A DNA stretch of 64,000 nucleotides from Anaerolineae bacterium (lineage in GTDB: Bacteria; Chloroflexota; Anaerolineae; UBA1429): contig OY776562.1 of assembly GCA_963675785.1 (NCBI GenBank), positions 576,001 through 640,000 of the forward strand. The letters are read 5' to 3'. The stretch's first letter is position 1; each line of letters opens with the position of its first letter. The position numbers were made by a program, and so were the translations under genes. This document shows, in pieces, positions 2,706-28,300 of the stretch. The notes beneath the pieces are model-generated. The model was not told the origin of the DNA, made no database searches, and worked only from the letters and a program-made list of their open reading frames with translations.

Positions 2706-3800
2706 ATGATTCACATTTTACACACATCAGATGTGCAGCTCGATGCAACTTTGGGGTTCTTGGGGGAGCGTGCGCCCGAGCAACGCCGCCGTCTGCTGAC
2801 TACCTTTGAGCGTATTCTTGCGCTTGCCGTGGATGGGCATTATGACCTGGTGGTGATTGCTGGCGATCTCTTTGATACGCCCAGGCCCACTGAAGCCACG
2901 TTGACTCGCGCTCAGCGGGCTTGTGGAGCTAACTGCCTGCCCATCGCCATTCTGCCCGGCAACCATGATCATTATGGCCAGGGCTCGGTCTATCGCGACA
3001 GCCGCTGGCCAAGCAATGTGCACATTATGGATGGCCAGCCCTGGCAGCCGGCCGGCCTCGATTTGCTGGTGCACGGCCACCCCTTGGCCTCGGCGCACGA
3101 TTCGCGCCCGTTGAACGATGTGACTCGTAGCGGTGACTGTCAGTTCGAGATCGCCCTGGCCCATGGTAATTATGAGCGCGCCGACTTTGGCCAAGTGAGC
3201 CGACCCATCAGTGCTGAGGCACTGCGCGCTACGGGCATGGACTATGTGGCTTTGGGCGATTGGCATGCGCCTGCCGAATACAGCCAGAGCAGTGTAAAAG
3301 CTTGGTATAGCGGCGCACCAGAGCCCACGGCTTTCTCGCAGGCGGATGCTGGCTATGTGTTGGATGTTCGCCTGGATGATACAGGTGTCTCGGTGAACCC
3401 CGTGCAAGTGGGCGAGAGCCGTGCCCAGGTGCTGGAACTTGATGCCACCGGCCTTACGGCTGAACAAGTGGAAACGCGTATTACTCAGTTGGCCGATCCT
3501 TTGTTGATGCTGGATGTGCATATCTATGGCGCGGTTTTGCCCGGCGAGCTGGTGGATGTGAACCAACTTGCGGCCCGAATCGAGGCTTCCTTCTTTTCAC
3601 TACGCATCAGCGATGATGCCCACGTATTGGCGGCCTCGCTGGAGGATATCGAGCGCGAAGGATCGCCACTACGAGCCAGCTATGTGCGATTGATGCGGGC
3701 CCGGATGCAAGAGGCTGTGGATGAGACCGAACGATACCGCTTGGAGCGCGCGTTGGCCCTGGGTTTGGCGCTGCTCGATGGAAAGCGGGTGCTCTCATGA
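2706..3800 (+). CDS. SbcD/Mre11-like (YhaO-type) metallophosphoesterase nuclease
   Basis: HTSDVQL, AGDLFD, PGNHD, AHG, LGDWH, YSGAPEP; ATGA overlap with the downstream ATPase. Confidence 0.85.
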   Translation: MIHILHTSDVQLDATLGFLGERAPEQRRRLLTTFERILALAVDGHYDLVVIAGDLFDTPRPTEATLTRAQRACGANCLPIAILPGNHDHYGQGSVYRDSRWPSNVHIMDGQPWQPAGLDLLVHGHPLASAHDSRPLNDVTRSGDCQFEIALAHGNYERADFGQVSRPISAEALRATGMDYVALGDWHAPAEYSQSSVKAWYSGAPEPTAFSQADAGYVLDVRLDDTGVSVNPVQVGESRAQVLELDATGLTAEQVETRITQLADPLLMLDVHIYGAVLPGELVDVNQLAARIEASFFSLRISDDAHVLAASLEDIEREGSPLRASYVRLMRARMQEAVDETERYRLERALALGLALLDGKRVLS

Positions 3801-6028
3801 GAATTCGAGAGATGCAGGTTCACCGCTTTCGCCAACATTTGGATGCCCACTATGTCTTTGATGAGGGTTTGAATGTCATTGTGGGGCCTAATGAATCGGG
3901 CAAAAGCTCGCTGCAAATGGCCATTCTTTTTGCCCTGTTTGGCAATCCACGCCATACCACGCTGGATCGCAAGATCAAAGTGGACGACTATGCCACTTGG
4001 GGCGCTAATGCGCCTTTTGCCATTGAGCTGGATTTTGATGCTGCTGGCGGTAGTTACCACCTGGCCAAGGATTGGCAAGCCGGCACCGCACGGCTAGAAC
4101 TGCCCGAAGGTGCTCCGCTGACCGATGCTGACGCAGTGCAGCAGACCATGGAGGTTTTGATCGGCTGTGTTTCTTCTGGCCTTTATATGAACACTGCTTG
4201 TGTTCGCCAGGATGATCTGGCCTCAATTACGGATGGTCAGGCGGCTATTGGCGCAGCTTTATTACAACGCCTCTCCAGCGCCGACGAACCCAGTTTGGCC
4301 GATGTAACGGCCCTATTGGATAAATCCGTGAGTGCGCAAAAGAACAAAGGCAACAAAGCCCCCGGATCCATCGTCAGGATTCCGCGCGAACTGGATACTC
4401 TGTCGCAAGAGATGGCCCGCATTCGACCAGATGCTGATCGTGTTCATGAGGCTCGTGAAGAGCTCGCCGAGTTGCAAGCACGCCATTCCGAGATTGCGGT
4501 AGCCCTCAAGGAGCAGGAGGCTATCAAAGAGGCCTTGGCTCGATCGTCGCGCTGGGAAGCCCAGCAAGCCCAAGCCCAACAGGATGAGGTTGCACTGGAA
4601 GATTCGTTGGAGCGCATTGATGTGGCCCTCAAACGCCAGGCAGAGGCGGCAGCCTTGGAGGTTGAACTACAAGCCTTTGGCGTTGAAGGTTTGAACCAGG
4701 AAGTGAACAATGCTTCTACACGTGCCGAGGTGGCCGCCGAGCAAACGCAGGCGCTCTCTTTCGAGTTCGAGGACAAACAGTGCGAGACGAACGAGATACT
4801 GGCCGAACTCGACCGACGCCGTGACGAGCTGGAATCTGTGGATTCTGCTGTCGCAGAAAAAAAGCCCGTTTCTTTTGTGGCCTTGATTGCTGGGGCCGTG
4901 TTGCTGATTGTCGGAGGGCTGCTCTATTCCAGCAATCACACCTTGGGCCCTGTCATCGCCGTAACTGGGGGTATCATCCTGAGCGTGCAGATGATTCTGC
5001 AACGGCAGAAGGCAGCCAAGGTTCGTGCTGTGCAGGAACAACGCAAGACCGAGCTGGTTGATATCGAGATGCAACGCACCCATCTACACGAGGCATTGGA
5101 AGAGGTGCGGCAGGCGCTGGCGAAAGCCAATGAGGCTGAGTCCAAAGCCCAGCAGAATGTAGCGCAATTGCTGGCTCGGACCGGGGCAGCTTCTCTGGCC
5201 GATTTCACTGAAAAGAATGGCCAATATCAACAGGCGCACCAAACGCGCCTTCTCGCCCAAACTGAACTAGAGACCTTACTGCAGGGTAGGCCGCGTGAGG
5301 AACTGGAAACGGCGCGGAGGAATGCCTCCAAAGTGCGACGTGATGCCCTCGAGGCTCTAGAAGATGAAAGTATTGCTGCTGTGGTGGACATGAGTGCTGC
5401 AGAGCGCCAGCGGATTGTGAACCAGATTGAGGCCTTGGAAGAGCAGGCTGACGAACTGGATGATAAGCTCATTCGCTGCCAGACGATCATTGAACATGCC
5501 GGTGACGCCGATACGCGTTTACTGGATCTGGAGGCACGCCAGCAAAGTCTGCAGGAGCAGCTCAAACGGGCTGAAGACTGGTTGAGCGTGTGCCAGATTG
5601 CCCAAGAGGTTATGCAAGAGGCGGGCGTGGTGGCGGCAGAGACCGTGCGCGAGCGCCTAGAGCCCGTTATTTCTGATTCACTACACATGCTGACTGAACA
5701 CTATGTCCAGGCTCGAGTCAATGCCGATCTCTCAGTCGAGGTATATGATGCGGCGGCGGATCGCTGGTTAACACCCGAGACCGGCACCCTGAGCGAAGGG
5801 ACGGTGGATCAGGTCTATCTCATCAGCCGCCTGGCTATGGTGCAGGCCCTTTTTGACGACGATACGCCGCCTGTGATGCTGGATGACCCCTTTGTGACCT
5901 TTGATGCAGTCCGGCGGGCCAAAGCGCTGGCTTTATGCCGGGAACTGGCCTCCAAGTATCAGATTCTGCTGTTCACTTGTCATGCCGATTTGGCTACTGC
6001 TGATGACCACGTCATCGAGCTGATTTGA
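3797..6028 (+). CDS. SbcC/Rad50-like (YhaN-type) coiled-coil ABC ATPase with central TM hairpin
   Basis: Walker A GPNESGKS, signature LSEGT, Walker B MLDDPF, H-loop FTCH; long coiled coils; two hydrophobic helices mid-protein. Confidence 0.85.
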   Translation: MRIREMQVHRFRQHLDAHYVFDEGLNVIVGPNESGKSSLQMAILFALFGNPRHTTLDRKIKVDDYATWGANAPFAIELDFDAAGGSYHLAKDWQAGTARLELPEGAPLTDADAVQQTMEVLIGCVSSGLYMNTACVRQDDLASITDGQAAIGAALLQRLSSADEPSLADVTALLDKSVSAQKNKGNKAPGSIVRIPRELDTLSQEMARIRPDADRVHEAREELAELQARHSEIAVALKEQEAIKEALARSSRWEAQQAQAQQDEVALEDSLERIDVALKRQAEAAALEVELQAFGVEGLNQEVNNASTRAEVAAEQTQALSFEFEDKQCETNEILAELDRRRDELESVDSAVAEKKPVSFVALIAGAVLLIVGGLLYSSNHTLGPVIAVTGGIILSVQMILQRQKAAKVRAVQEQRKTELVDIEMQRTHLHEALEEVRQALAKANEAESKAQQNVAQLLARTGAASLADFTEKNGQYQQAHQTRLLAQTELETLLQGRPREELETARRNASKVRRDALEALEDESIAAVVDMSAAERQRIVNQIEALEEQADELDDKLIRCQTIIEHAGDADTRLLDLEARQQSLQEQLKRAEDWLSVCQIAQEVMQEAGVVAAETVRERLEPVISDSLHMLTEHYVQARVNADLSVEVYDAAADRWLTPETGTLSEGTVDQVYLISRLAMVQALFDDDTPPVMLDDPFVTFDAVRRAKALALCRELASKYQILLFTCHADLATADDHVIELI

Positions 6029-7113: not shown

Positions 7114-8556
7114 GTGAATTTCATCTTTTTCTTTCCCGACGAGATGCGCGCTGACGATATTTCATGCTATGGGCATCCGTTGGTACAGATGCCCAACTAT
7201 GATCGCCTAGCACAAGACGGCGTACGCTTTGAGCAGTGCCATGTACAGCACACGGTTTGTTCGCCCTCACGCTGCAGCCTGTTCACCGGTTGGTATCCGC
7301 ACGTGGCTGGGCATCGCACGCTGTGGCATTTGCTGCGTCCTCACGAGCCTAACCTGCTGCGTTACCTGCACCAGGCCGGTTATCACGTCGAGTGGTTTGG
7401 CAAGAACGACGTGTTTGCCCCGGAATGCTTTGCTAAAGCCGTTGACCATTGGGAGAGCGCCTCGGGCGGACACAGTGGCCCCAACGCCCATGCTTTTAGC
7501 AGTGAGGCCTACTATAGCTTTGACGCCCAGCCCTTTGATGGCGCCTTGAGCGAGACCAGCGATATGAAGCAAGTGCAGGGCGGTATCGATTTCTTGCGCT
7601 CGCGCCAGCCCGATGACGCGCCCTTTTTCTTGTTTTTGCCGCTTTCTATGCCTCATCCGCCCTATGGCGCGCCCGAACCCTTCCATAGTATGTATGCTCC
7701 AGAAGATGTTCCCGATCTTCGCCCCACGGATCTAGAGGGCAAGCCCGATTACTATCAACTTGTTCGTAGCTATCGTCATCTCGACCAATTGGATGAGGTG
7801 ATGCTCAGGCATATCCGTGCCACCTACCTGGGCATGAACAGTTATTGCGATTGGATGCTTGGCCAATTGCTAAATGCTCTGGATGAAACCGGCCTAGCCG
7901 AGGAAACCTGCCTCATCGTCTCTTCCGACCACGGCGATTGGGCCGGCGATTACGGCCTGGTGGAAAAGTGGCCCAGCGCTCTGGACGATTGCCTGACCCG
8001 CGTGCCCTTGCTGGTGCGTTTGCCCGGTGGCACCCAGGGAAGAACCATCGAGGGGCCAGTGGAGCTCATGGATTTGATGCCCACTGTGCTCGAACTGGCG
8101 GGGATCACCCCGCGACATACTCATTTCGCGACCTCGCTACTGCCCGAGCTGATGGGACAGCGCGATAATCTGCATCGCGCCGTCTATGCCGAGGGTGGCT
8201 ATGATCTCCATGAACCCCATTGCTTTGAGGGTCGCTGGAGTGATTACGATATTCCTCGCGATGAGCAGCATATCTATTGGCCCAAGGGCCTGCAGCAACA
8301 AGAACATCCCGAGAGCGTCTGCCGCTCGGCCATGGTGCGCACCCAGATGTTCAAGTTGGTTCAGCGTACCAACGGTGTCTGCGAGTTGTACGATTTGGAA
8401 CGTGACCCGCTGGAATTGGACAATGTTTACCGTGATCCCCGATATACAGATGTCCAGCGTCAGCTTGAAGCTGACTTGCTCAACTGGTATATGCGTACCG
8501 CTGATGTAACCCCCATGGACGAGAATCCGCGCGGTCTGCCCGGTCAAACTGAATGA
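7114..8556 (+). CDS. Sulfatase (Cys-type)
   Basis: CSPSR signature, SSDHGD, ELYDLERDP. Confidence 0.88.
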   Translation: MNFIFFFPDEMRADDISCYGHPLVQMPNYDRLAQDGVRFEQCHVQHTVCSPSRCSLFTGWYPHVAGHRTLWHLLRPHEPNLLRYLHQAGYHVEWFGKNDVFAPECFAKAVDHWESASGGHSGPNAHAFSSEAYYSFDAQPFDGALSETSDMKQVQGGIDFLRSRQPDDAPFFLFLPLSMPHPPYGAPEPFHSMYAPEDVPDLRPTDLEGKPDYYQLVRSYRHLDQLDEVMLRHIRATYLGMNSYCDWMLGQLLNALDETGLAEETCLIVSSDHGDWAGDYGLVEKWPSALDDCLTRVPLLVRLPGGTQGRTIEGPVELMDLMPTVLELAGITPRHTHFATSLLPELMGQRDNLHRAVYAEGGYDLHEPHCFEGRWSDYDIPRDEQHIYWPKGLQQQEHPESVCRSAMVRTQMFKLVQRTNGVCELYDLERDPLELDNVYRDPRYTDVQRQLEADLLNWYMRTADVTPMDENPRGLPGQTE

Positions 8557-8571
8557 TGTGAGGATAGATTG

Positions 8572-9372
8572 ATGGCCTTGGAGATTGTAAAACAGGATGT
8601 TCAGACGGGCCGGATTCGCCACGCTCTGTTTGATTTCGACGGCACCATCTCCCTCATCCGCCAGGGGTGGCAGGACATCATGACGCCGCTCATGGTGGAG
8701 GTATTGGCCGCTACGCCGCTGGCTGAGCCGCAGGATGAGTTGGAACGTCTCGTCCCCGAGTTCATCGCCCGCACCACCGGCAAACAGACCATCTATCAGA
8801 TGATGGGCCTGGCCGATATGGTGCGTGAGCGGGGTGGTGAGCCGCTGGAAGCTCTAGAATACAAGAAAGAGTATCTCAGACGGTTGGATATTCACATTGC
8901 TGACCGCGTGAACGGCCTTAAGGCGGGGACTATTCAATCAGAGACACTCATTGTGCCGGGGGCGGTTGATTTTTTGCGTGCCTTACACGAGCGGGGTGTG
9001 CGCTGTTATTTGGCTAGCGGCACCGACATCGGCTATGTGCGTGCTGAGGCCGTGGCCTTGGGTGTGGCCCACTGGTTCGGCGAGGACATTTACGGCGCTC
9101 TGGACGATTGGAAGAGTTATTCCAAGGCCATGGTCATAGAGCGCATCATTAAAGAGAATGGCCTGCAAGGTAGCGAACTGGCCGCCTTTGGCGATGGCTA
9201 TGTAGAGATCGAGGAAGTGGTCAAAGTAGGGGGCATTGCCGTGGGTCTGGCCACCGACGAGGTGGGTTTGACTGAGGTGGATGCATGGAAACGTCAGCGT
9301 TTGATCAAAGCCGGCGCTCAGGTTATTGTGCCCAATTTTTCTTCTGAACTGGTGGATTGGCTCTTTAGTTAG
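8572..9372 (+). CDS. HAD-superfamily hydrolase
   Basis: FDFDGT motif I, ASG motif II, FGDG motif IV. Confidence 0.8.
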   Translation: MALEIVKQDVQTGRIRHALFDFDGTISLIRQGWQDIMTPLMVEVLAATPLAEPQDELERLVPEFIARTTGKQTIYQMMGLADMVRERGGEPLEALEYKKEYLRRLDIHIADRVNGLKAGTIQSETLIVPGAVDFLRALHERGVRCYLASGTDIGYVRAEAVALGVAHWFGEDIYGALDDWKSYSKAMVIERIIKENGLQGSELAAFGDGYVEIEEVVKVGGIAVGLATDEVGLTEVDAWKRQRLIKAGAQVIVPNFSSELVDWLFS

Positions 9373-9377
9373 TCGTT

Positions 9378-9418
9378 ACAAAAGCAGCGAGCCGGGTGTT
9401 TGCCCGGCTCGTTTTGTT
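9378..9418. terminator. Terminator between convergent HAD and topoisomerase genes
   Basis: GCGAGCCGGG...CCCGGCTCGT stem flanked by A/T tracts. Confidence 0.65.
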
Positions 9419-11670
9419 TACTCGTCTTCTTCATCTGATTCGTTATCAACCAGGCCCAACGCTTCTGCCAGAGCGGGAAAAGCCTCTGCCCAGGAGGGAT
9501 CACGCGGGATCAGCACGAAATCCTTGCGCGGAAAGTGCACCTGATAGGACAGCAGCCGCTCATAGATCGACTCAGAGATGAGCCGGGCCACGCTCTTGAT
9601 CTGGGCCAGGTCAGGCCGGGTGATGGCCAACACGCTCATGGCGTCGGTCTCGGGATCGCCGTCATCCCATTCGGGGCCGATGGAGGCAAAGCCCAACAGC
9701 TTGGTGCCGTCCATCACCACGATGGCCTCGCGCCACTCGGTACTCAGGCTGGGCAGGAACATGGCCTCGATGGCGCCTGCTTCCAGCGGCAGGGGGATAT
9801 CAGGGAATTGATCTCTGACGGCATGGAACAGAGCGCGTACCGCGTCCACATCACCGTGGCGAATGGCGTCATCCTGGGCGTCCGCATCGGGCAGGCAGGT
9901 GCGCACGGTGACGCCGTTCATATCGCTCATATCCACTTCTTGATCCTGCAGGCGAACCCAGTGGAACTTGCGGCGCAGGGTGGAAGGGTAATATTTGTCG
10001 ATGATGTCATAATCGACTGACTTGCCCCAGGCATAGTAGACACGCGGGTCAATGTACGATCTCAAGCTGGTACCCAGGTTCCAGGTGCGTTTGTGGCCGG
10101 CCATCTCATGTTGGCATTGCACCTTGCCAGCGGCATCCTGGGCACGCTTGCGCCGTTCTTTGGCGGCTTCTACGTTGCGCAAGGCAGTCTTGATGCGCTT
10201 TTCATAGCGTTCGCGTATCTTTTTCTTTTGCTCAGGCGTGGTAGCCGCTTCCTCTTTTTGGCGGGCCTCGGCACGCAACCCCTTGAGCTTGTTCTGATAG
10301 TCATTGACCTGGGCACGGTATGCTTCAATACGGGCGGCGGCCTTTTCACCGCGTTCCTGATACCGTTTGCTGGTGCGCTCCCAGTCGCCATTGTATTTCT
10401 TGGTGTGGTTACACAGTTCCGCCGCCGCTAGGTTGGCCTGACTGGCCGCATACCATTTCTTGTACTCGGGATCGCGGGCCTTGGTTTTGGAGCTCTTGAG
10501 CGTCTCTTGTACCACCATGGTGGCGTGGTGGGTACGGAAGACCTTGGCCGAAAGCCCCGGGACGATGCTGGATAGATAGACGTTCACATCATGGCTGCCC
10601 ACATCTGGAAAGAGCTGCGGCAAGTCGCGCGTAGGGTGGTTGCGGTCGTCGTCGCTGGCTTCCTTGGAGGGCCGTGCGTTGGCAATCAGCTCACGTAGGT
10701 TTTCCAGTACCACATCGGGCACGGTGAGCTTTTTGTGCCACACCACCGAGTCTTTGCCCAGGAAATCGAACTCGACCACATTATCTTTGCCCAGCTTGAG
10801 GTGTTCGGGACGCAGGGTGGTGGCACCTACGGTATCCGCCTCGTCGGGATCCTTTTCATCACCGACGCGCAGGCATAGGGCATCGATGAGATAGCAGGCT
10901 GTAGCTACCATGCGGGTCTGTTCGTTGCCGTTGCGCAAGTCGTCTTGGATGCGCTGACGGATGGTGTCGATTTCTTCTTCCAGATGCACAGCCTTGTCGA
11001 ACTTGGCGGCCTCACGCTCTTGCTTGACCGGCGCTGTATCGCTCAGCCAGATGTATTTGAGCTTGTCAGAGAGCTTATCTTTCCAACGGGCTACCCACAT
11101 GGATTCGGGTTGCCAGACAACCTCTTCCCAGTCGCCTTCGGGACGAGGGGCATCAGGGCTGAGGTTCAGCGTCACGTCCCGTTCGGTTGCGCCCTCTTTC
11201 CAGCGCCCTCGCAGGGGGTGTTCGCCGCGTCCCATAAAAATACCCGAGGGCTCGGTCATATAATTGCCCAGCTGCACTAGCTGCCCATTGACGATGGCAT
11301 GACCGTATTTCTTTTTGAGCGCCTCGCGCTCCTCTTTGCGTTCCGCAGAGAGCGCCTTGCGCTCTTCTTTGGATATGGCCTCTTTTTGCTGACGCTCTTT
11401 ATCGACGAGCGCATAGGCTGGCGTGAAATCGATCTCTTCCAGCGAGAGGATGTCTTTCAGGCCGAGTTCCTGGCTGAAATCAGCCATAAAGTTCTCGGCG
11501 AATACCGGATCCTGAACGTATTCGGTATCCTTTTTGTGAGCCCAGGCCATGGCCATTTCTTCTTGTTTGGGCGTTAGCTCACGCTTTTCACCCCGGATGG
11601 TTAGGCACAGCCCGACGAGTTCTGGTTTTGGGGGAATGATGATCCCATTATGAATGAGTTGTTCTAGCAA
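9418..11670 (-). CDS. DNA topoisomerase IB, long eukaryotic/archaeal type, with C-terminal GNAT-like extension
   Basis: HNGIIIPP, FMGRGEHPLRG, LRVGDEK..ADTVG, FDFLGKDS, AKVFRT, LCNH, LGTSLRSYIDPR; TTG start at 11670 after AAAGGTG (ORF track extends to 11766). Confidence 0.93.
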   Translation of the reverse strand: MLEQLIHNGIIIPPKPELVGLCLTIRGEKRELTPKQEEMAMAWAHKKDTEYVQDPVFAENFMADFSQELGLKDILSLEEIDFTPAYALVDKERQQKEAISKEERKALSAERKEEREALKKKYGHAIVNGQLVQLGNYMTEPSGIFMGRGEHPLRGRWKEGATERDVTLNLSPDAPRPEGDWEEVVWQPESMWVARWKDKLSDKLKYIWLSDTAPVKQEREAAKFDKAVHLEEEIDTIRQRIQDDLRNGNEQTRMVATACYLIDALCLRVGDEKDPDEADTVGATTLRPEHLKLGKDNVVEFDFLGKDSVVWHKKLTVPDVVLENLRELIANARPSKEASDDDRNHPTRDLPQLFPDVGSHDVNVYLSSIVPGLSAKVFRTHHATMVVQETLKSSKTKARDPEYKKWYAASQANLAAAELCNHTKKYNGDWERTSKRYQERGEKAAARIEAYRAQVNDYQNKLKGLRAEARQKEEAATTPEQKKKIRERYEKRIKTALRNVEAAKERRKRAQDAAGKVQCQHEMAGHKRTWNLGTSLRSYIDPRVYYAWGKSVDYDIIDKYYPSTLRRKFHWVRLQDQEVDMSDMNGVTVRTCLPDADAQDDAIRHGDVDAVRALFHAVRDQFPDIPLPLEAGAIEAMFLPSLSTEWREAIVVMDGTKLLGFASIGPEWDDGDPETDAMSVLAITRPDLAQIKSVARLISESIYERLLSYQVHFPRKDFVLIPRDPSWAEAFPALAEALGLVDNESDEEDE

Positions 11671-11825
11671 GTTTGCACCTTTACTGCCTTTACTGGTAAC
11701 AACAGGTAAGGATACTATAAACATTTTCGCTAGCCAAGTCATCCCTTTTGGCTCGGGAGCTTGCATCTGGCAAGCCCATGCGTTACCTTCTACCTAGGGA
11801 TTCATGTCTGGGGGAGGAAATTGTG

Positions 11826-13238
11826 GTGAGACCGAATATTCTTTTTCTGATGAGTGATGAACACCGTGCCGACGTCGCTGGATTTGCCGGCAATGAGGTG
11901 GTGCGTACGCCATTTCTGGACAAGCTGGCCGAAACCGGCGTCGTCTTTGAGAATGCCTATGCCCCGTCACCCATTTGCGTGCCCTCGCGGCAGTGCATGA
12001 TGGCCGGGCAATTGCCCAAAACCTGCAACTGCGAGGGCTGGATTGATCTGGAGCCGGGTTACCTGACTTTCTCACGGCTCTTTTCGCAGTATGCCTATGA
12101 GACTATTTGCTGTGGCAAACTGCATCACCAGGGCTTTGACCAAATGCAGGGTTGGACGCAGCGTCCCGCCGGTGATCTTCAGGTGACGCCCAACTATATT
12201 AAAGGGGCCATTCCCGAGGAATATGCCAAGTACCAGCGTCCTTTTGGCGATTACAAATGGACGGATAGCAAAGAGGTCAAACGCGCTGGTGCGGGTACTG
12301 GGCGCCCTGCAGCTGGCGACCGCGAGTGGACGGATGCGGCCAAGCGGGCGGCAGAGACTTATTTTAACGACATCACCTATGACCGCGAGCAGAGCCGCAA
12401 GCCGCTCATGCTCAAGTTGAGCCTGCTGGAACCCCATTACCAGTACATGGTGGATGAGGAAAAGTTTGGTTATTATCTCAATCGCGTGCCGGTTTACCTC
12501 GATGAGCCGGTCTCGGAGCACCCCTTCTTGAGTCAGCGGCAGGTGCGACCGGGCCTGGATGCCTCACCGCGGGAACTGCGTCGTGCGACGGCTGCCTATT
12601 ATGGGATGATTGAGAACATCGATAGCATGTACGCCGAGATGGCCGAGATGCTCGAATATGTGGGTGAGAACCTCGACGACTGGATCATCATCTATACCTC
12701 AGATCACGGCGAGATGCTGGGACAGCATGGTATTTGGGAAAAACAAAAGTTCTATGAAGGCAGTGTACGCGTGCCGCTCATTGTTCGCTGGCCCAAGGGT
12801 TTCGCTGGTGGACAGCGCATCTCCCAGAACGTTAGCACGTGCGATATCTATGCCACGCTATGTGAGCTGACTGGCATTCCTATGCCGAAGGGATTGGATA
12901 GCCGCAGCCTGGTGCCGCTACTCAATGGCAATACCGAGGGCTGGTTTGATGAGGCCGTATCGCAGTTCAGTCTGGTGAACGTGCCGGTTCCCGCCGGATT
13001 AGAGAGCGCAGGCAAGCTGGATAATGTCATGATCAAGCAAGGGGCGCTCAAATACCAATGGTATGCAGGTATGCCTGAAGTGCTCTTTGATCTGGAAAAG
13101 AACCCGGAAGAGACCATCGACTATAGCGATGATCCCGCCTATGCGGACAGCATGGCCCATTTTCGCCAGCGGCTCGCTGAACTGGGGCATGGTCCCCAAG
13201 CCGATATGCACTATATCAATGCGGGCTACAACATTTAG
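11826..13238 (+). CDS. Sulfatase (choline-sulfatase-like)
   Basis: PNILFLMSDEH, CVPSR, GKLH, SDHGEMLG..EKQKFYEGS; GGAGG RBS then GTG. Confidence 0.88.
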   Translation: MRPNILFLMSDEHRADVAGFAGNEVVRTPFLDKLAETGVVFENAYAPSPICVPSRQCMMAGQLPKTCNCEGWIDLEPGYLTFSRLFSQYAYETICCGKLHHQGFDQMQGWTQRPAGDLQVTPNYIKGAIPEEYAKYQRPFGDYKWTDSKEVKRAGAGTGRPAAGDREWTDAAKRAAETYFNDITYDREQSRKPLMLKLSLLEPHYQYMVDEEKFGYYLNRVPVYLDEPVSEHPFLSQRQVRPGLDASPRELRRATAAYYGMIENIDSMYAEMAEMLEYVGENLDDWIIIYTSDHGEMLGQHGIWEKQKFYEGSVRVPLIVRWPKGFAGGQRISQNVSTCDIYATLCELTGIPMPKGLDSRSLVPLLNGNTEGWFDEAVSQFSLVNVPVPAGLESAGKLDNVMIKQGALKYQWYAGMPEVLFDLEKNPEETIDYSDDPAYADSMAHFRQRLAELGHGPQADMHYINAGYNI

Positions 13239-13256
13239 ATGATTTTCCGGCTCCCC

Positions 13257-13285
13257 TGGAACCTGGTGCGCTAATACGCGTCTAA
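13257..13285 (+). promoter_or_regulatory. Putative ECF sigma promoter
   Basis: TGGAAC-N16-CGTCTAA upstream of the SIMPL gene. Confidence 0.55.
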
Positions 13286-13326
13286 TTAATTGTTGTTAGA
13301 AAGCACCATTTACTGGGGAGGTTATC

Positions 13327-14049
13327 ATGAAAAAAGGCATACTTTATGCTGGACTAGTTCTAGTTTTAGCAGTGGCGCTAGTGGGTTGTGCATCACCAAC
13401 AAACACGTCAGATGCGATGCAGCGCACGATCACAGTAACTGGAACAGGTGAGGCTAGTGCTAACCCGGATGTCGCCTATCTCTATCTGGGTGTCGAATCG
13501 GTGGATCCTGACGTATCCGTTGCTTTTGCTGATAACACCACGCGTATGAACGCTGTTTATCAGGTACTGCAGGATGCAGGGATTGCCGAGGATGATTTGC
13601 AGACATCAACTTATAGCGTTTCTCGGGAAGGAAACTCTACCTACAGGGCCACTACGGTTGACGACGAGGCATCTACCGAAGCCAACTTTTATGTGACCAA
13701 CATCGTTCAAGTGACCGTTCGTGATGTCGCGTCTGTAGGCGACCTAATAACCAAGGCTTTCGAAGCCGGTGCCAACAGCGTACAGAGTGTTTCTTTTGCT
13801 GTAGAGGATACGACCGCACTTGAGACGCAAGCTCGCACAAATGCTCTGGCTGATGCTCAGGCTCGTGCTGAGCAGATTGCAAGTGAAATGGGCGTAACCT
13901 TGGGCAACGTTCAATCGGTTAGCGACTCGAGCTACGTTCCTTACGAAACGTCTGCTTCATACGCTCTTGGCGGTGGGGGTGCCTCGGTTAGCTCGGGTCA
14001 GTACGATGTTAGCGTACAAGCCTATGTTGTCTACGAAATAGCGGACTAG
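13327..14049 (+). CDS. SIMPL (DUF541) domain lipoprotein
   Basis: Lipobox LVGC; ITVTGTGEASANPDVA, ALADAQARAEQIA..GVTLG. Confidence 0.88.
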   Translation: MKKGILYAGLVLVLAVALVGCASPTNTSDAMQRTITVTGTGEASANPDVAYLYLGVESVDPDVSVAFADNTTRMNAVYQVLQDAGIAEDDLQTSTYSVSREGNSTYRATTVDDEASTEANFYVTNIVQVTVRDVASVGDLITKAFEAGANSVQSVSFAVEDTTALETQARTNALADAQARAEQIASEMGVTLGNVQSVSDSSYVPYETSASYALGGGGASVSSGQYDVSVQAYVVYEIAD

Positions 14050-14153: not shown

Positions 14154-16928
14154 ATGCCCCAAAAGCAACGGCTCTTGCTCATTGATGGATACGCTGTGGC
14201 GTATCGCGCTTACCATGCCATGCCGCCACTTACCACCCCTGATGGCGAACCCAGCAATGCTGTCTTTGGCTTTGCCAACATGCTGTTAAAGGCCATTGCC
14301 GATCTGGAGCCCACCCATGTGGTGGCCGCCTTTGATGTCGGCAAGACATTCCGCCACGAGGAATACGAGGCCTACAAAGCCACCCGGGCGGAAACCCCCG
14401 ATGATCTCCGTGTGCAGTTTGATCGCATCAAAGATCTAGTGCGCATCTTTGGTGTGCCCATCTATGAAAAACAAGGCTTTGAGGCCGACGATGTGTTGGG
14501 CACCCTGACCAAGCAGGCCGAAGAAGAAGGCATTGACAGCATTATCCTGACGGGCGATTCGGATACGTTCCAACTCATCAGCGACCGTGTACATGTGTTC
14601 TATCCCCAGGGGCGTAACGCGGTGCCGATCGTTATGGATATCAAAGCAGTAGAAGATCGCTATGGCCTCTCTCCGGCTCAGCTCATCGACCTTAAGGCGC
14701 TTGTTGGCGATAGTTCAGACAATATTCCGGGTGTCTCTGGCATTGGCCCCAAAACGGCCACGCCGCTTTTGCAAAAGTATGGCGACATTGATGGTATCTA
14801 TGCCCATTTGGACGAGATAACCCAAAAGAGAGCCCATACAGCGTTGGAGAACGGACGCGAAACTGCTGATTTCTCTCGCCACTTGATTACAATCGTGCGC
14901 GATATAGATGACATCAAACTCGATATGAAAACCGCCTTTTGGGGCGATTACGATCGTACGGCTGTGGTCGATTTTATGCGCAAGATGGGCTTTAGTAGCT
15001 TGGTGGAACGTGTACCCGGACGTAAAGAAGAGGGGGAGACCCAGCTAGCCCTCTTTGGCCAGGATGCGATCGCTGCTGCATCTTCTAGTGTCGACGTGGC
15101 CCCCGCTTCGGTCTCTGCCGATTGCGTTTATGCAGTGATCGATACGAAAGAGGCCCTCGTTGCTTTGGTAGAGCGCTTGCGGGCTGCCGGCTTTTTCGCC
15201 TTTGACACCGAAACGGATGGCACTGACGCTATGCGTGCTCACCTCGTGGGCATTTCGGTGAGCGATAAAGAACACGAAGGGTTTTATATTCCGATTGGGC
15301 ACCGAACAGGCGAAAGTGCGCGTCAACTCTCACTAGATCAAATTTGCACGATGCTCGGCCCCGTTTTGGCCGATGCCGCTGTGCTTAAGACAGCGCACAA
15401 TGCCAAGTATGATATGACCATCCTCCAACGTCACGGTATGCCTGTGGCTGGTATTGAGTTTGATACCATGATCGCTGCCTGGCTAGCAGATCCCTCGGAG
15501 CGTTTGGGACTCAAGGCGCTGGCACTCAGCCGTCTGGGTGTTGAGATGACACCCATCACTGACCTCATCGGCAAGGGCAAAGGTCAAGTTACCATTGATG
15601 TATTGCCTATAGACCGAGTGGCCATGTATGCTTCGGCCGATGCCGACATGACCTTGCGCCTGATGGGGCTCTTGCACAAAGAGTTGGAAGGCAAGGGTCA
15701 AATACCTCTGCTGCGCGATATGGAGATGCCGCTGCTCCCTGTGTTAATGAGCATGGAAATGCACGGCATGGTGGTGGATATCAAGTATCTGGCCGATATG
15801 TCCACCGAGTTGGAAAAGCGCCTCGGTGAGATTACGAGCAGCATCTATGAGTACACCGGCCATCCCTTTAATCTCAATTCCCCCAAACAGCTTGGCGAGG
15901 TGCTCTTTGACGAACTGGGCTTGCCCGTGGTTCGCCGCACTCGCACCGGCTACTCGACCGATGCGGCTGTACTGGACGAGCTTATTGGCAAACACCCCAT
16001 TGTTGAACTCATTCTCGAGTTTCGCCAACTCGACAAGCTCAAGAGCACCTATGTTGATGCCCTACCGGGGCTGGTCAATCCCCAAACCGGCCGAGTGCAT
16101 ACCTGGTTGAGTCAGACAGGTACCACCACGGGGCGTCTCTCTTCGCGGGATCCGAATTTGCAGAATATTCCCGTGCGTTCTGACCTGGGCCGGCTGGTTC
16201 GCGGCGCTTTTGTGGCGCCTGAGGGTTGTATGCTGTTGGGGTGCGACTATTCACAGGTTGAACTGCGCATCCTGGCACATATCTCGCAAGACCCAGAGCT
16301 GTTAGGGGCTTTCCATCGTGATGAGGACGTACATGCCTCGACGGCCGCGGCAGTGCTTGGCATTCCCCTGAACGAGGTAACCAAGGAACAGCGCTCGCTT
16401 GCCAAGGCCATCAACTTTGGCCTGATGTATGGCATGCAAGAGTACGGCCTTTCGGCACGCACGAATCTTTCTGTGGAGGAGGCCCGCCAATTCATTGCGG
16501 CCTATTTTGCACGATTCGGCAAGGTGCGCGATTATCTGGATGGAACCATCGTGTTTGCTCGCGAGCACGGCTATGTAGAGACTCTGATGGGGCGCCGCCG
16601 CTATTTCCCCGAGTTGCGCGAGGACAGCCATGCCAATGGTCGCATCAAACGCGAATCCGAGCGTGCCGCCATTAATATGCCCATTCAGGGCAGTGCTGCG
16701 GATATCATCAAGATAGCCATGATTCGTCTGCAAAAACGACTGCAGGATGCGGGCGTCAAGGCGGCCATGGTTTTACAGGTGCATGACGAGTTAATCCTTG
16801 AAGTGCCCGATGAGGAACTGGATACAGTGCGCGACATGGTGGTTGAGACCATGATGGGCGCTTACAAGTTGGATATTCCCTTAAAGGTAGAAGTAGCTAT
16901 TGCCAGGAATTGGATGGAGATGAAATAG
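14154..16928 (+). CDS. polA: DNA polymerase I
   Basis: 5'-3' exo (LIDG, EADD, GDSSDNIPG), 3'-5' exo (FDTET), polymerase motifs DYSQVELR, KAINFGLMYG, QVHDEL. Confidence 0.98.
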   Translation: MPQKQRLLLIDGYAVAYRAYHAMPPLTTPDGEPSNAVFGFANMLLKAIADLEPTHVVAAFDVGKTFRHEEYEAYKATRAETPDDLRVQFDRIKDLVRIFGVPIYEKQGFEADDVLGTLTKQAEEEGIDSIILTGDSDTFQLISDRVHVFYPQGRNAVPIVMDIKAVEDRYGLSPAQLIDLKALVGDSSDNIPGVSGIGPKTATPLLQKYGDIDGIYAHLDEITQKRAHTALENGRETADFSRHLITIVRDIDDIKLDMKTAFWGDYDRTAVVDFMRKMGFSSLVERVPGRKEEGETQLALFGQDAIAAASSSVDVAPASVSADCVYAVIDTKEALVALVERLRAAGFFAFDTETDGTDAMRAHLVGISVSDKEHEGFYIPIGHRTGESARQLSLDQICTMLGPVLADAAVLKTAHNAKYDMTILQRHGMPVAGIEFDTMIAAWLADPSERLGLKALALSRLGVEMTPITDLIGKGKGQVTIDVLPIDRVAMYASADADMTLRLMGLLHKELEGKGQIPLLRDMEMPLLPVLMSMEMHGMVVDIKYLADMSTELEKRLGEITSSIYEYTGHPFNLNSPKQLGEVLFDELGLPVVRRTRTGYSTDAAVLDELIGKHPIVELILEFRQLDKLKSTYVDALPGLVNPQTGRVHTWLSQTGTTTGRLSSRDPNLQNIPVRSDLGRLVRGAFVAPEGCMLLGCDYSQVELRILAHISQDPELLGAFHRDEDVHASTAAAVLGIPLNEVTKEQRSLAKAINFGLMYGMQEYGLSARTNLSVEEARQFIAAYFARFGKVRDYLDGTIVFAREHGYVETLMGRRRYFPELREDSHANGRIKRESERAAINMPIQGSAADIIKIAMIRLQKRLQDAGVKAAMVLQVHDELILEVPDEELDTVRDMVVETMMGAYKLDIPLKVEVAIARNWMEMK

Positions 16929-16929
16929 C

Positions 16930-18600
16930 GTGGAATTGCTTGATGTACAGATCGAAAAAGCTATTGGAAAATCCTTGCGGCGGGCGCAACGTCACGGCGA
17001 TCTGCCAGCATTTGATATTCCCGATCAGATCGTCGTAGAGCGCCCCAAGCAAGAGTCGATGGGTGAATATGCTACTCCGGTTTGCATGCAGCTGGCGCGC
17101 CTGGCGCGAATGGCTCCTATCAAAATTGCTGAACAGGTCGTCAAAAATATACGCGATTTGGATTTTTGTGATTCGATCGAAGTAGCGCCCCCTGGCTTTA
17201 TCAACTTTAGGCTGGCTCCGTCTTGGCTGACGCAGCAGGTGGCTTTGATTCAGCAAGCCGCTGATACGTACGGCTGTGTTGATACAGGCAAGGGCGTCAA
17301 GGTACAGGTGGAATTTGTTAGCGCCAATCCCACGGGGCCGCTGCATGTGGGCTCTGCCCGCAATGCCGTGTTGGGCGATGCCATTGCCAGTGTGCTTAGT
17401 GCTGCCGGTTACGATGTGCAACGTGAGTACTATGTGAACGACGCCGGCAGTCGTATGCTCGCTTTTTACGCCACGCTGATGGCTCGCTATGCTCAGGCTC
17501 TCGGTGTGGATGAAAAGGTGCCTGAGGATGGCTATCATGGCATTGCCATGGTTGAGCTGGGCAAGACAATTGCAGACGAGTACGGCCACAAGTTCCTGGA
17601 TATGCCCCGTGAAGAGGCGCTCCCTGCCATTGGCAAAATCGGCCTGAGAAGCGTGCTAGAGGGCGCGGCTGATGACCTGAGCCTGATGGGCATAAAGTAC
17701 GACAACTGGTTCTCTGAGCAATCCCTCTATACCAATGGCCAGTACGAGCGGATCATGACTATCCTTCGTGAGGGCGGCTATGTTGACCTGCACGATGGTG
17801 CCGTGTGGTTCATGGCAACCAAGTTGGGTGGCAGCAAGGATGAGGTGATCGTGCGTTCTGACGGCACGCCTGGCTATTTTGCCTCTGATATCGCTTATCA
17901 CTATGACAAGTTCGTGACCCGCGGCTTTGACCGTGTTATTGATATATGGGGCGCAGATCACCAGGGCCATGTTCCGCGAATGCATATCATGATGAAAGCG
18001 CTTGGGCTAGATCCTGAGAGGTTGGTGATTACCCTCTATCAACTAGTAACCCTCAAGCGGGGTGGAGAGATTGTGCGCCTCTCCAAGAGAACCGGCGACA
18101 TTATCACCCTGCGCGAAGTGCTGGAAGAAGTCGGCCCAGATGCAGTTCGCTTTTTCTTGTTGGCCCGTTCTGCCGATAGCCAGATGGATTTTGACCTGGA
18201 CTTGGCCAAGGAACAATCTGACGAGAACCCGGTCTATTACATCCAGTACGCACACGCTCGCATCTGCTCCATTCTGCGCAATGCCGAGGGCATTGATTAT
18301 GCGGATGGCGATCTCTCCTTGTTGACTTCTGAGGCCGAGTTAGCCTTGATTCGGAGTATGGCTAGGTTGCCGCAAGTTGTTCGAGATGCGGCCGTCAATC
18401 TGGCACCTCACGGCCTGACCTACTATGCGCAGGAGCTCGCCTCGCAATTCCATTCCTTTTACCGGGATTGCCGGGTGATCAGCTCGCTTCCTGAGGATGA
18501 GGCTATTACCCGTGCGCGATTACGGCTGGTGGAGGCTTGTCGAATTACCCTGGCACGCACGCTGATTTTGATGGGAATGACCACGCCAGAAATCATGTAA
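16930..18600 (+). CDS. argS: Arginine--tRNA ligase
   Basis: EFVSANPTGPLHVG (HIGH), WGADHQGH, LSKRTG, YIQYAHAR. Confidence 0.97.
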   Translation: MELLDVQIEKAIGKSLRRAQRHGDLPAFDIPDQIVVERPKQESMGEYATPVCMQLARLARMAPIKIAEQVVKNIRDLDFCDSIEVAPPGFINFRLAPSWLTQQVALIQQAADTYGCVDTGKGVKVQVEFVSANPTGPLHVGSARNAVLGDAIASVLSAAGYDVQREYYVNDAGSRMLAFYATLMARYAQALGVDEKVPEDGYHGIAMVELGKTIADEYGHKFLDMPREEALPAIGKIGLRSVLEGAADDLSLMGIKYDNWFSEQSLYTNGQYERIMTILREGGYVDLHDGAVWFMATKLGGSKDEVIVRSDGTPGYFASDIAYHYDKFVTRGFDRVIDIWGADHQGHVPRMHIMMKALGLDPERLVITLYQLVTLKRGGEIVRLSKRTGDIITLREVLEEVGPDAVRFFLLARSADSQMDFDLDLAKEQSDENPVYYIQYAHARICSILRNAEGIDYADGDLSLLTSEAELALIRSMARLPQVVRDAAVNLAPHGLTYYAQELASQFHSFYRDCRVISSLPEDEAITRARLRLVEACRITLARTLILMGMTTPEIM

Positions 18601-25329: not shown

Positions 25330-28300
25330 CTAATTCTTGAGGGCCATCTGCTCCAGCTGTTCGGGCGGCAAATCCAGCGAAAGGCATTGTGAGACGCCTC
25401 GCTCTGCCATCGAGATGCCATGAATGGTAGTGGCGGCCTCAATTGTGCGGCGGTTATGGCTGATAACTAAGAACTGGGTATTATCGGCATGTTCTAGTAG
25501 CAGCTTGCGAAAACGCTGCACATTGGCCTCATCGAGCGCAGCATCTACCTCATCCAGGCAGCAGAACGGCACCGGATTCGCACTGAGCAAAGCGAAAACA
25601 AGAGCAACAGCGGTCAGTGCCCGCTCACCACCAGACAGCAGCGACAGCTGCTGTGTTTTTTTGCCAGGCGGATGGGCGATGATGTCAACGCCTGTTTCTG
25701 CAATATCGTCGGGATTGGTCAATATAAGCTTGGCATTTCCCCCGCCAAAGAGGGCGGTAAAGTATTTGCCAAAGTTCTTGTCCACAAGCCGAACCGTCTC
25801 TCCAAAATCTTGCTGGATGACATCGTCCAACTCATCGATGACTTCATACAGGGTGGCAATGGCTCCGCGCAAATCCTGGGCCTGGGATTCCAAGAAGGTT
25901 TGCCGCTGAAGTGTTTCTTCGTATTCTTCGGGTGCATCGGGGTTGATATTGCCCAGCCGTTTGATGCGCACACGTAACGCCCGGATCTGATCTGAAAGAC
26001 CTTGTGGTGCCGTTTCGACGACGGGTAGTTCAATAACTTTGTCACTCAAGCTGAGGTGCAACTGCTGCACGGTGCTGCCCGGAAGGTGCACTGGACCGAG
26101 ATCTGCTTCGATGTCCTCCGCTAAGGCATCGACCGCATCCTGGGCACGATCTCGCTCCAAATGAGTTTGATTGTAGCGCAGCTCGGCATCGTGCAGGCGA
26201 TCCATCCGTTGGGAGCGCAGAGTTTCCATTTCGCGGCGCTTGGTTTCTAACTCGGCCAGTTCAGTGCGCGCTGGTTCGAGTGCTGATAGCACATGCGCGG
26301 CGTTTTCCTGGTGTGTGGCCAAGCGCTCGTGCGCTGCAGTTGTCGCTTCTCCAAGTGCTGTCTGCTCTGCGTGGAGTGAGTTTAGCCGTTCCGTTTTGGC
26401 AGAATGTTCTTCAAGTATCTGTCTCATATTCTGTTCATGGCTTGAGAGCAGGGCATTCTGGCTTTCGATAGTTCTCTTGGCTACGGCTGCGTGTGTTTCC
26501 ATTTCAGCAACGCGGGCACGCAGGCCCTCGTCATCCTGGGTTGAAAGCATATTCTGCACTTGTTCAAGTTCTTGGATATGCTTGACTCTTGATGCTTCCA
26601 GGCTTTCAAGCTCGCTCGAAAAATGCGCTCGTTTGTCCGCAAGGTTACCCAGCTCTTTTTCAGCTTGAACAAGGCGATTTTGGTGCCAGTTGTGGTCGCG
26701 CACAGCCTCACGGATATCGGCTTCACATTCGCCTACCGTTTGTCTCTGCCTGTTGGCTTGATCGCGCAGGGAGCGTATTTGCTCTTCAAGTGACAGAAGC
26801 TGATTGTTAGCTTCATCTAAGGCACTTTGCCGAGCCCGTACCTGCTCGGATGCTTCGTTGATGTCGGCATCGATCTGCTCAATGGCTGCAGGCAGATTCC
26901 GCCATTCGCGTTCTTGAGCCAAGAAATTGGTGCGCTTTTTACGAGCGCCGCCGCTTACTGCGCCTGTGGGCTGAACTGTCTCGCCGCCCAGCGTCACAAT
27001 GAGCGAAGCACCAGTGCGCTGCCGAAGCAGATTTCTTGCAGTGGTCAGGTCATCGACTATAACAACACGCCCCAATAAAAGACTGGCGATGGGTTCCAAT
27101 TCTGCATCATAAGATACGAGGTCTTTGGCGACGCCGACGATGCCGCGTTCTGCCTGAATGCGCAGGTCTGAGCGTGCTTTGACAGTATCGAGCGGCAAAA
27201 AGGTAGCCCAACCTGCACCAGATCGCTTGAGTTCGGCAATTGCTGCCTCGGCATCGGCCCAGGTGTCAGCCACGATGTTCTCCAGGCGAGAGCCCATGGC
27301 AGCTTCGATAGCCTGCTCATATCGTGAAGGGACAGCGATGAGATTGGCAACAGTGCCCCTAAGCCCCTTGAGCCCCGATTCTGCACCGAGAATGTGACGA
27401 ACGCCGGGGTTGTAGCCGGTCATCTCATCACGCAGTCTGCCAAGCAGATCGTAGCGCGAAACGAGCTGGTCTTTATGTTTTTCCTGCGCGGTGAGGCTTC
27501 CCTGAGCTTCGCGCAGTTCCTGACGCAGTTCATCGAGTCGGGTTTCGACCTTGGATCTGCTTGCCAGGGCGTTGTTGTACTGCTCTGTTGTCTCGGCCAG
27601 CTCTGCACGCAGTTGGTCGAGTTTTTCTTCTAGCTCGGTCTCACGTCGTGCAATCTGGGCAATAGATGAATGAGCCGTGGTGCAATCACGGCTTGATGCT
27701 TCTTGTTGTTCGTCGAGCTGTTCAAGCCGCGCATGGTTCTGCGAAATATCGTGATTGGTTCTTGTTAGCTGGCGTTCGAGCTCGTTAGCCTGCTTTTCCA
27801 GGCGGGAACGCTGCCTGTCCAACTCGACGAGTTCGCTGCGGGCGGCCCCCAGCACACGCTGGCTTTCCTCGAAGGATGCAGTATAACGTGCTAGCTCTGC
27901 ACGAGAGGCATCAATTTCCGTCTGAAGCGCATTGCGTCGTGTTTCTAGGCCGTCTATATCCGCTTGCAGGCCGGTTTTCTGTTGCTCGTAAAGGCGCGCT
28001 CTTTCTTGATTGATGGCAATCTCACGCGAGAACATCTCGGCGCGTTCTTGTAGGGCCGTTGCGCGCGAGGCCAGTTCGTCGATATGGCGCCGCTGCTCGT
28101 CTTGTTTTTCTTGTAGTCTGGCCAGTTCATCACGAGCTTCTGTGGAATGCGTCTGCTGAAGTTCGAGCTGGTTTTGCGCCCGCTCCAGTCTCTCCTGGGT
28201 TTGCGAAAGATTTTGTTGCCTCACCCGCCATTGATAGCCGTACCATATACGTTGAAGCTCTTCCAGATCTTGCTGCAATAGGCGATAGGCTTCTGCACGT

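Follow-up and report, generated by a model that had tools for sequence, protein, structure and literature searches.

We describe a gene for a long, eukaryote-like topoisomerase IB (TopIB) in the chromosome of an Anaerolineae bacterium (GenBank assembly GCA_963675785.1; Chloroflexota, Anaerolineae, UBA1429). The window, i.e. the whole stretch of 64,000 nucleotides that was analysed, covers positions 576,001 to 640,000 of contig OY776562.1, and the gene is found on its negative strand at 9418-11670. Its domains, catalytic pentad and linker confirm it, at the level of sequence, as an intact long-form TopIB, and a predicted GNAT-fold domain is joined to its C-terminus. We put the probability at about 85% that the gene encodes a working, native long TopIB of Asgard-related origin, that its GNAT-fold domain is a regulatory module, and that the enzyme covers a share of the work of a second type IIA topoisomerase.

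The kind of enzyme is known. The papers cited here assign the long form to eukaryotes and archaea and a short one to bacteria and viruses (PMC2621148; PMC8748870; PMC8185306), TopoIB is reported from Thaum-, Bathy- and Aigarchaea (PMC8371274), and bacteria are stated or implied to have the short form only (PMC4824112, PMC2621148, PMC8748870, PMC8371274). We found no report of a bacterial long-form TopIB in the full-text literature, although supplementary trees (PMC4824112, PMC2621148 and the Asgard papers) could hold such sequences. New are the large bacterial lineage of the enzyme, a second, independent lineage, the fusion to a GNAT-fold domain and a pattern of occurrence that is complementary to that of a second type IIA enzyme.

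Domains, fold and limits of the gene

Three Pfam domains of the long form were recognized, all far above their cut-offs and all on the negative strand; residue numbers of these matches refer to a 782-amino-acid (aa) reading frame, see below. The cap domain Topoisom_I_N (PF02919) is encoded at 11044-11661 (residues 36-241; E 1.3e-52; 178.9 bits against a cut-off of 25) and matches profile positions 5-213 of 213. The catalytic core Topoisom_I (PF01028) follows at 10312-11031 (residues 246-485; E 1.2e-61; 208.5 bits, cut-off 23.7), and Topo_C_assoc (PF14370), which includes the active-site Tyr539, at 9949-10125 (residues 548-606; E 1.7e-14; 53.9 bits, cut-off 25.1). The initial annotation, made from the letters of the sequence, had proposed a long-form TopIB with the cap motifs HNGIIIPP, EE.A and FMGRGEHPLRG; the profile searches bear this out, the PF02919 match included, and the motifs are present in the protein as HNGIIIPP, QEEMA and FMGRGEHPLRG. 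The N-terminal domain of the short viral and bacterial type was absent from the Pfam matches at E up to 1, and NCBIfam gave no family model for the protein.

The catalytic pentad consists of R268 (10867-10869), K306 (10753-10755), R379 (10534-10536), H422 (10405-10407) and Tyr539 (10054-10056), all encoded on the negative strand at the places first annotated. We take these residues to be the equivalents of human R488/K532/R590/H632/Y723. None of the five varies among 16 aligned bacterial and archaeal-type sequences (A1) or in a 29-sequence family alignment (A3; relatives 52-61% identical), and long stretches of cap and core are also invariant across these 29 relatives. Between His and Tyr, a coiled-coil linker of roughly 100 aa had been proposed; the AlphaFold2 model predicts about 97 residues there, as two long helices (residues 430-475 and 479-526 of the 750-aa protein; 10093-10383, negative strand). 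The full-length model, built on a 29-row alignment, has a mean predicted local distance difference test score (pLDDT) of 86.5 and a predicted template modelling score (pTM) of 0.80. It superposes on human Top1-DNA complexes with target-normalised template modelling (TM) scores of 0.77-0.79, and the predicted structure has the closed clamp fold.

The best relative with a solved structure, according to HMMER, is the 539-residue DNA topoisomerase I 6z01 (E 9.4e-136), which is CsTOP1 of Caldiarchaeum subterraneum (PMC8748870). CsTOP1 (6Z01/6Z03), with 43% identity to the window protein in Foldseek, and the TopIB of Nitrososphaera viennensis have the same order of cap, core, linker and C-terminal domain and an identical pentad. 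These two enzymes are reported to relax DNA independently of ATP (PMC4824112, PMC8748870). Compared with these archaeal enzymes, the window protein has a bacterial host, a longer linker (about 97 residues in two helices) and about 160 additional residues that are predicted to form a GNAT-fold domain. Human Top1 chains were matched at about 1e-69 over residues 39-608; human and eukaryotic Top1 share the fold (30% identity), the pentad and the principle of a coiled-coil linker with the window protein, which lacks their long basic N-terminal extension. The short TopIB of Deinococcus radiodurans and of vaccinia and variola virus has the catalytic fold and chemistry in common with it and aligns to the catalytic part only (about 245 columns, E 2e-08; 6.7e-06 for the Deinococcus structure 2f4q in HMMER). 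These enzymes measure about 310-350 aa, against 750 aa here, and are without the Topoisom_I_N cap, the linker and Topo_C_assoc, whereas the window protein has all three.

The list of open reading frames gives the gene from its first ATG, as a minus-strand frame at 9418-11766 of 782 aa. The ATG at 11766 would collide with a divergent sulfatase gene, and the residues that it adds match nothing in the homologue alignment. A TTG at 11670 gives an N-terminus like the consensus of the homologues, MLxQLIHNG (29 relatives), and the Shine-Dalgarno-like sequence AAAGGTG (11676-11682, negative strand) is read 5 nt before it, as a putative ribosome-binding site. Because AAAGGTG precedes the TTG and the N-terminus agrees with the homologues, we set the coding sequence to 9418-11670, 750 aa; the coordinates and residue numbers of the initial annotation hold with this start, and in the 782-aa frame the pentad reads R300/K338/R411/H454/Y571. 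A sigma-70-like promoter match upstream of the TTG (ATGACT-17-TATAGT, 11714-11742, negative strand) is weak, with 9 of 12 positions, and was discarded as being at chance level (1 site found, 1.2 expected). At the other end, a GC-rich hairpin with T runs on both strands (9386-9413) lies between the end of a HAD-hydrolase gene at 9372 and the TopIB stop at 9418, and is likely a bidirectional terminator for these two convergent genes.

Some relatives depart from this layout. P0123 (669 aa, 52% identical) has a cap insertion of about 70 residues, in A1 columns ~216-288, just before the conserved EPSGIFMGRG. In P0134, P0135 and P0142 (918-942 aa) the match to the window protein starts at about residue 550, after an N-terminal extension of about 540 residues.

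The C-terminal GNAT-fold domain

About 175 residues follow the C-terminus of the topoisomerase proper, a part that the initial annotation had overlooked. In brief, AlphaFold2, Foldseek and VIA-align place a GNAT-fold domain of about 160 aa at 9454-9912 on the negative strand, followed by an acidic tail to 9421. As modelled (pLDDT 89.1, pTM 0.84), the tail runs strand-helix-helix-three strands-long helix-strand-helices. Its top Foldseek matches are all GNAT acetyltransferases (best E 2.4e-04, TM about 0.5), and the top 50 chains in VIA-align are likewise all of GNAT type, with Z 10.4-12.4 over 115-145 aligned residues. Pfam searches with 16 family tails gave Acetyltransf_1 in 3 (best 4.7e-05) and Acetyltransf_7 in 1. 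A protein atlas returned two GNAT-containing clusters at 0.91 and otherwise nameless clusters at 0.92, which we regard as a lead only.

A motif scan of the best 120 homologues showed two size classes: 84 proteins are 700-830 aa long and have the tail, and 35 are 577-622 aa long and end a few acidic residues past the topoisomerase C-terminus. The remaining one, P0070 (972 aa), combines a short-class TopIB with an aminotransferase class V domain (PF00266); the two may be genuinely fused or joined only by run-through in gene calling. When 41 genomes were searched with a profile of the tail, the window genome and 23 of 24 other family members had a single match each, which in every case lay in the TopIB frame; in the 24th the gene is cut by a contig end. 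In the 16 genomes of other families there was no match. We consider this a better test than word-based searches with the tail alone, which found no homologues of 96-308 aa and, among longer proteins, only its own; such searches are weak here, with about 30% identity among relatives. The tail is thus a fusion, specific to the family, of a divergent module of predicted GNAT fold, and the joining to the TopIB C-terminus would have taken place within the family of the window genome.

The loop that binds the pyrophosphate of acetyl-CoA in GNAT enzymes follows strand 4 and has the pattern Q/R-x-x-G-x-G/A. Across 16 aligned tails (A2) R16, C18, D33, F41, P66, W72, G91 and P92 are invariant and this loop is variable; a regular expression for it matched 8 of the 84 long-class tails. 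The window sequence reads PDLAQIKSVA at this position. The modelled tail stops after the helix behind strand 5, and the last GNAT strands are missing. Because a conserved acetyl-CoA loop signature is lacking, we read the tail as a putative regulatory or partner-binding module and not as a proven acetyltransferase.

Distribution and phylogeny

In six-frame searches with PF02919 the gene turned up in every one of the 24 further genomes of its family, one of these copies being the one truncated at a contig end; of 16 genomes that each represent a different other family of the class, 1 was positive. Since all 24 family genomes have the gene, we reject the idea that this genome gained it in a single recent transfer. 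In a class-wide even sample 80 of 401 genomes were positive, and presence tracks families: f1 (15/15, the family of the window genome), f3 (5/5), f18 (3/3), f19 (4/4), f26 (3/3) and f29 (5/5) are fully positive and many others score 0. The phylum sample, 401 genomes, gave a single positive family beyond the class (2/2), and 14 control genomes gave none. We conclude that long TopIB is, to judge from these patterns, vertically inherited in a large bacterial lineage, family by family.

An exhaustive HMMER search over 1.84 billion representatives gave 3049 proteins at E<=0.001 and 595 at E<=1e-30. The closest named proteins come from Anaerolineae or Chloroflexota metagenome bins. With one genome scanned per GTDB species, at least 587 relatives, bacterial and archaeal, were confirmed. 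Among the best 80 of these, Anaerolineae, Chloroflexota and Thermoflexia rank first, followed by five bins of candidate division KSB1, a few unclassified 'bacterium' bins and one 'Cytophagia' bin, then by Asgard archaea (Promethearchaeota, Hod-, Hermod-, Heimdall- and Thorarchaeota; 47-56% identity) and last by Bathyarchaeia (41-48% identity). The sequences are public, and some relatives are already annotated as 'DNA topoisomerase I' in the databases.

Trees were calculated with FastTree from 132 rows and with IQ-TREE in a 'quick' mode from 79 rows and 568 columns, under LG+C20+F+G4 with posterior mean site frequencies (PMSF) and with support from the Shimodaira-Hasegawa-like approximate likelihood ratio test (SH-aLRT) only. 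The 79 rows were picked by hand from the 132, with all groups kept. The window protein falls in a main Chloroflexota group of 20 rows (SH-aLRT 97, FastTree 99), which joins a group of KSB1 and allied bacterial rows (9 rows, SH-aLRT 95) in a clade of 29 rows (99 in both trees). Together with three Asgard groups and two unnamed representatives these 29 make up a clade of 45 rows (SH-aLRT 99, FastTree 100), and Bathyarchaeia are the next neighbour (SH-aLRT 93). A eukaryote-type clade of 12 rows, 7 of them eukaryotic by name and 4 unnamed, is separate with a support of 100. The Asgard proteins, whose eukaryotic-type TopIB has been listed as an Asgard signature protein (bioRxiv 10.1101/858530), are the nearest non-bacterial relatives among the matches listed; they are about 580-710 aa long and lack the GNAT-fold tail of the window protein. 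The alternative named in the initial annotation, a short, poxvirus-like TopIB with no PF02919 match, fails on the strong PF02919 match.

Two further families of the same class, f38 and f60, form a separate clade (99) that adjoins a cluster representative named Nitrososphaeraceae (85). CsTOP1 scores 538 and 537 bits against the f38/f60 side and 457 bits against the window protein, which in the tree is nearer to the Asgard sequences than to the group containing Nitrososphaeraceae. A tree forced to unite all 34 bacterial rows in one clade lost 160.9 log-likelihood units and was rejected by the approximately unbiased (AU) test (p-AU 0.000164), and with it a single origin of all bacterial copies; it should be noted that this constraint was chosen after the first tree had been seen, although 'all bacteria' is a grouping that one would naturally set in advance. 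We take the result to mean that the long form entered this bacterial class at least twice and that the window gene belongs to the larger, Asgard-affiliated lineage. The Thaumarchaeota affinity suggested in the initial annotation is not borne out: the nearest archaeal relatives are Asgard, and a Thaumarchaeota-like copy is found in the two other families. As to its choice between inter-domain transfer and an overlooked bacterial lineage, each stands in part, as the gene belongs to a large vertical lineage that is nested with Asgard sequences.

The TopIB frames of f38 measure about 790-830 aa (L138-L142 in G061, G298, G143, G276 and G319) and those of f60 about 630-655 aa (L021, L023-L025). Against Pfam Topoisom_I_N this lineage scores higher than the window clade, with E down to 1e-70.

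The simplest reading of these data is an old transfer from archaea to bacteria. The ancestor of the large Chloroflexota (Anaerolineae-class) group and KSB1 may have gained the gene from an Asgard-related archaeon, with vertical descent of the gene since then. We favour this direction because the archaeal distribution is wider and deeper; the tree itself is unrooted.

Topoisomerase set, alternative explanations and significance

The window genome encodes one type IA topoisomerase (PF01131), one GyrA/ParC (PF00521) and one GyrB/ParE (PF00204), and neither a Topo VI A subunit (TP6A_N) nor a second PF01028 match was found in it. PF00521 matches were read site by site, and two pieces in one open reading frame (intein-like) were counted as one gene. 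A single GyrA/ParC is found in 24 of 25 genomes of family f1, which includes the window genome, and in 20 of 22 long-TopIB genomes from 13 other families; the one genome of family f3 in this comparison (G026, 0/1) has two. Thus, 44 of 48 genomes with long TopIB have a single GyrA/ParC, compared with 7 of 29 genomes without it (4/15 in a first set and 3/14 in a further sample); genomes without it usually have two (22 of 29). In the mixed families f10, f16 and f20 the TopIB-positive genome has one GyrA/ParC and the TopIB-negative genome two (3/3 contrasts). The single-gene state occurs in both the Asgard-like and the Thaumarchaeota-like TopIB lineage.

Where the PF00521 match is split, the break lies at about profile position 40-85 within a single open reading frame of 1046-1394 aa (G143:C44:10425-13178, G216:C177:76318-79071, G427:C135:16229-19171 and G044:C34:3669-5447), as if gyrA were interrupted by an intein or some other large insert. 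In 5 of 25 family genomes the GyrA/ParC gene is located about 5-7 kb from TopIB on the same strand (G006:C71, G010:C503, G011:C872, G019:C1 and G020:C1); in the window genome the distance is about 158 kb.

If the enzyme works like human Top1 and its archaeal counterparts, duplex DNA would be clamped between cap and catalytic domain, and Tyr539 would attack one strand to give a 3'-phosphotyrosine link, aided by Arg268, Lys306, Arg379 and His422. The cut strand could then swivel, so that supercoils of either sign are relaxed with no need for ATP or Mg, with the coiled-coil linker presumably braking the rotation before the nick is resealed. We suggest that TopIB in this way takes over the supercoil-relaxing share that is elsewhere done by a second, Topo IV-like type IIA enzyme.

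Several observations weigh against parts of this explanation. Four TopIB-positive genomes (G018, G026, G154 and G094) have two GyrA/ParC genes and seven TopIB-negative genomes have one. The counts come from related genomes and are not independent, and gyrase and Topo IV are not told apart by PF00521. Furthermore, decatenation of intact duplex circles is beyond a type IB enzyme, so that the main task of Topo IV is not replaceable by TopIB and the single type IIA enzyme must perform it. Because of this, the kinship of the genomes and the ambiguity of PF00521, we treat the association as an observation, from which we infer the division of labour. With regard to origin, the direction of transfer rests on an unrooted tree in which the bacterial clade and the three Asgard groups form a polytomy inside the 45-row set, and the KSB1 and 'Cytophagia' labels belong to metagenome bins, for which mis-binning is possible. 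Finally, the window's own tail had no Pfam match at E up to 10.

This last result also bears on the idea that the C-terminal domain is an active acetyltransferase, which would modify the topoisomerase or nucleoid proteins and couple relaxation to acetyl-CoA. The GNAT fold is clear (VIA-align Z up to 12.4, Foldseek), and a few family tails match Acetyltransf_1 or Acetyltransf_7; we nevertheless consider this activity unlikely, as the loop motif is rare among the tails, the invariant residues lie elsewhere and the domain ends before the last GNAT strands. The polytomy and the lack of a root would likewise fit an ancestral bacterial long TopIB that Asgard archaea gained from bacteria, or a very old shared inheritance, and the bacterial clade is species-rich. 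Long forms are, however, present in several archaeal phyla outside Asgard and bacteria (Bathyarchaeia and the neighbourhood of Nitrososphaeraceae), and the bacterial finds are limited to part of one class, one further family of the phylum and KSB1, with 0/14 controls, which makes a bacterial ancestry improbable. We hold it to be very improbable that the gene is a relic, in decay or no longer catalytic, whose product binds DNA without topoisomerase action. The extra C-terminal domain could signal a changed role, but all five catalytic residues and long stretches of cap and core are invariant in 29 relatives that are 52-61% identical, intact family copies have no stops, and the predicted clamp is closed like that of human Top1.

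An artefact of assembly or binning, by which archaeal or eukaryotic DNA was fused to a bacterial chromosome, might be suspected, as the best solved relative is archaeal (6z01) and PMC4824112 confines long forms to eukaryotes and archaea. We regard the chance of this as negligible. The genome consists of a single contig of 3,217,757 bases (94.84% complete, 1.29% contamination), the GC content at the locus (0.54-0.58) is similar to that of the rest of the window, and polA (14154-16928), argS (16930-18600) and smc (25330-28929), named as bacterial flanks in the initial annotation, are indeed all located within 20 kb of the TopIB gene. In each of nine public runs from three studies, 0.46 or more of the words sampled from window positions 8000-13500 are present. 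A contig of 18,897 nt spans this stretch with 0 differences, and may be the source of the assembly; contigs from a second sample cover 8177-9626 and 9597-13159, also with 0 differences. In a run from another study two contigs, at 8000-9735 (30 differences) and 10073-12919 (58 differences), link the gene, at its 3' end and at its 5' end, to the same neighbours. These independent contigs across both gene ends and the single 3.2-Mb contig exclude the chimerism for which a check had been proposed, and each of the 24 family genomes with the gene is a separate assembly.

Other neighbours are the HAD hydrolase, a SIMPL protein and two sulfatases, each with PF00884 and an SGSH_C C-terminal domain, which flank TopIB on the positive strand at 7114-8556 and 11748-13238. 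The TTG start listed for the latter overlaps the stretch by which the TopIB frame extends upstream, which means that at least one of the two listed starts is too early. A 743-aa protein with SMC/RecF-like AAA N-terminal motifs (AAA_23, AAA_15, SMC_N) is encoded at 3797-6028 on the positive strand, and is distinct from the true smc.

Long TopIB serves as a marker that ties Thaum-, Bathy- and Aigarchaeota and the Asgard archaea to eukaryotes. A species-rich, vertically inherited bacterial lineage that groups with Asgard alters the known distribution of the enzyme and documents that genes passed long ago between bacteria and Asgard-related archaea; trees on the origin of eukaryotic Top1 must take in this lineage. 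The GNAT-fold fusion would be a new architecture for this class of enzymes. The nearly exclusive pattern with a second GyrA/ParC gene provides a testable idea on the role of a swivelase in bacteria. Tentatively, and with more doubt than confidence, we speculate that many families of the Anaerolineae class and KSB1 took up the swivelase regarded as a eukaryotic signature from Asgard-related archaea and then arrived at a eukaryote-like division of labour, with long TopIB relaxing supercoils and one type IIA enzyme doing the remaining work, in which a second, Topo IV-like type IIA enzyme became dispensable, and that in one family a new GNAT-fold regulatory domain was wired in as well. If this is true, the Thaumarchaeota-like acquisition in f38 and f60, together with their single GyrA/ParC, would mean that the same solution has arisen twice.

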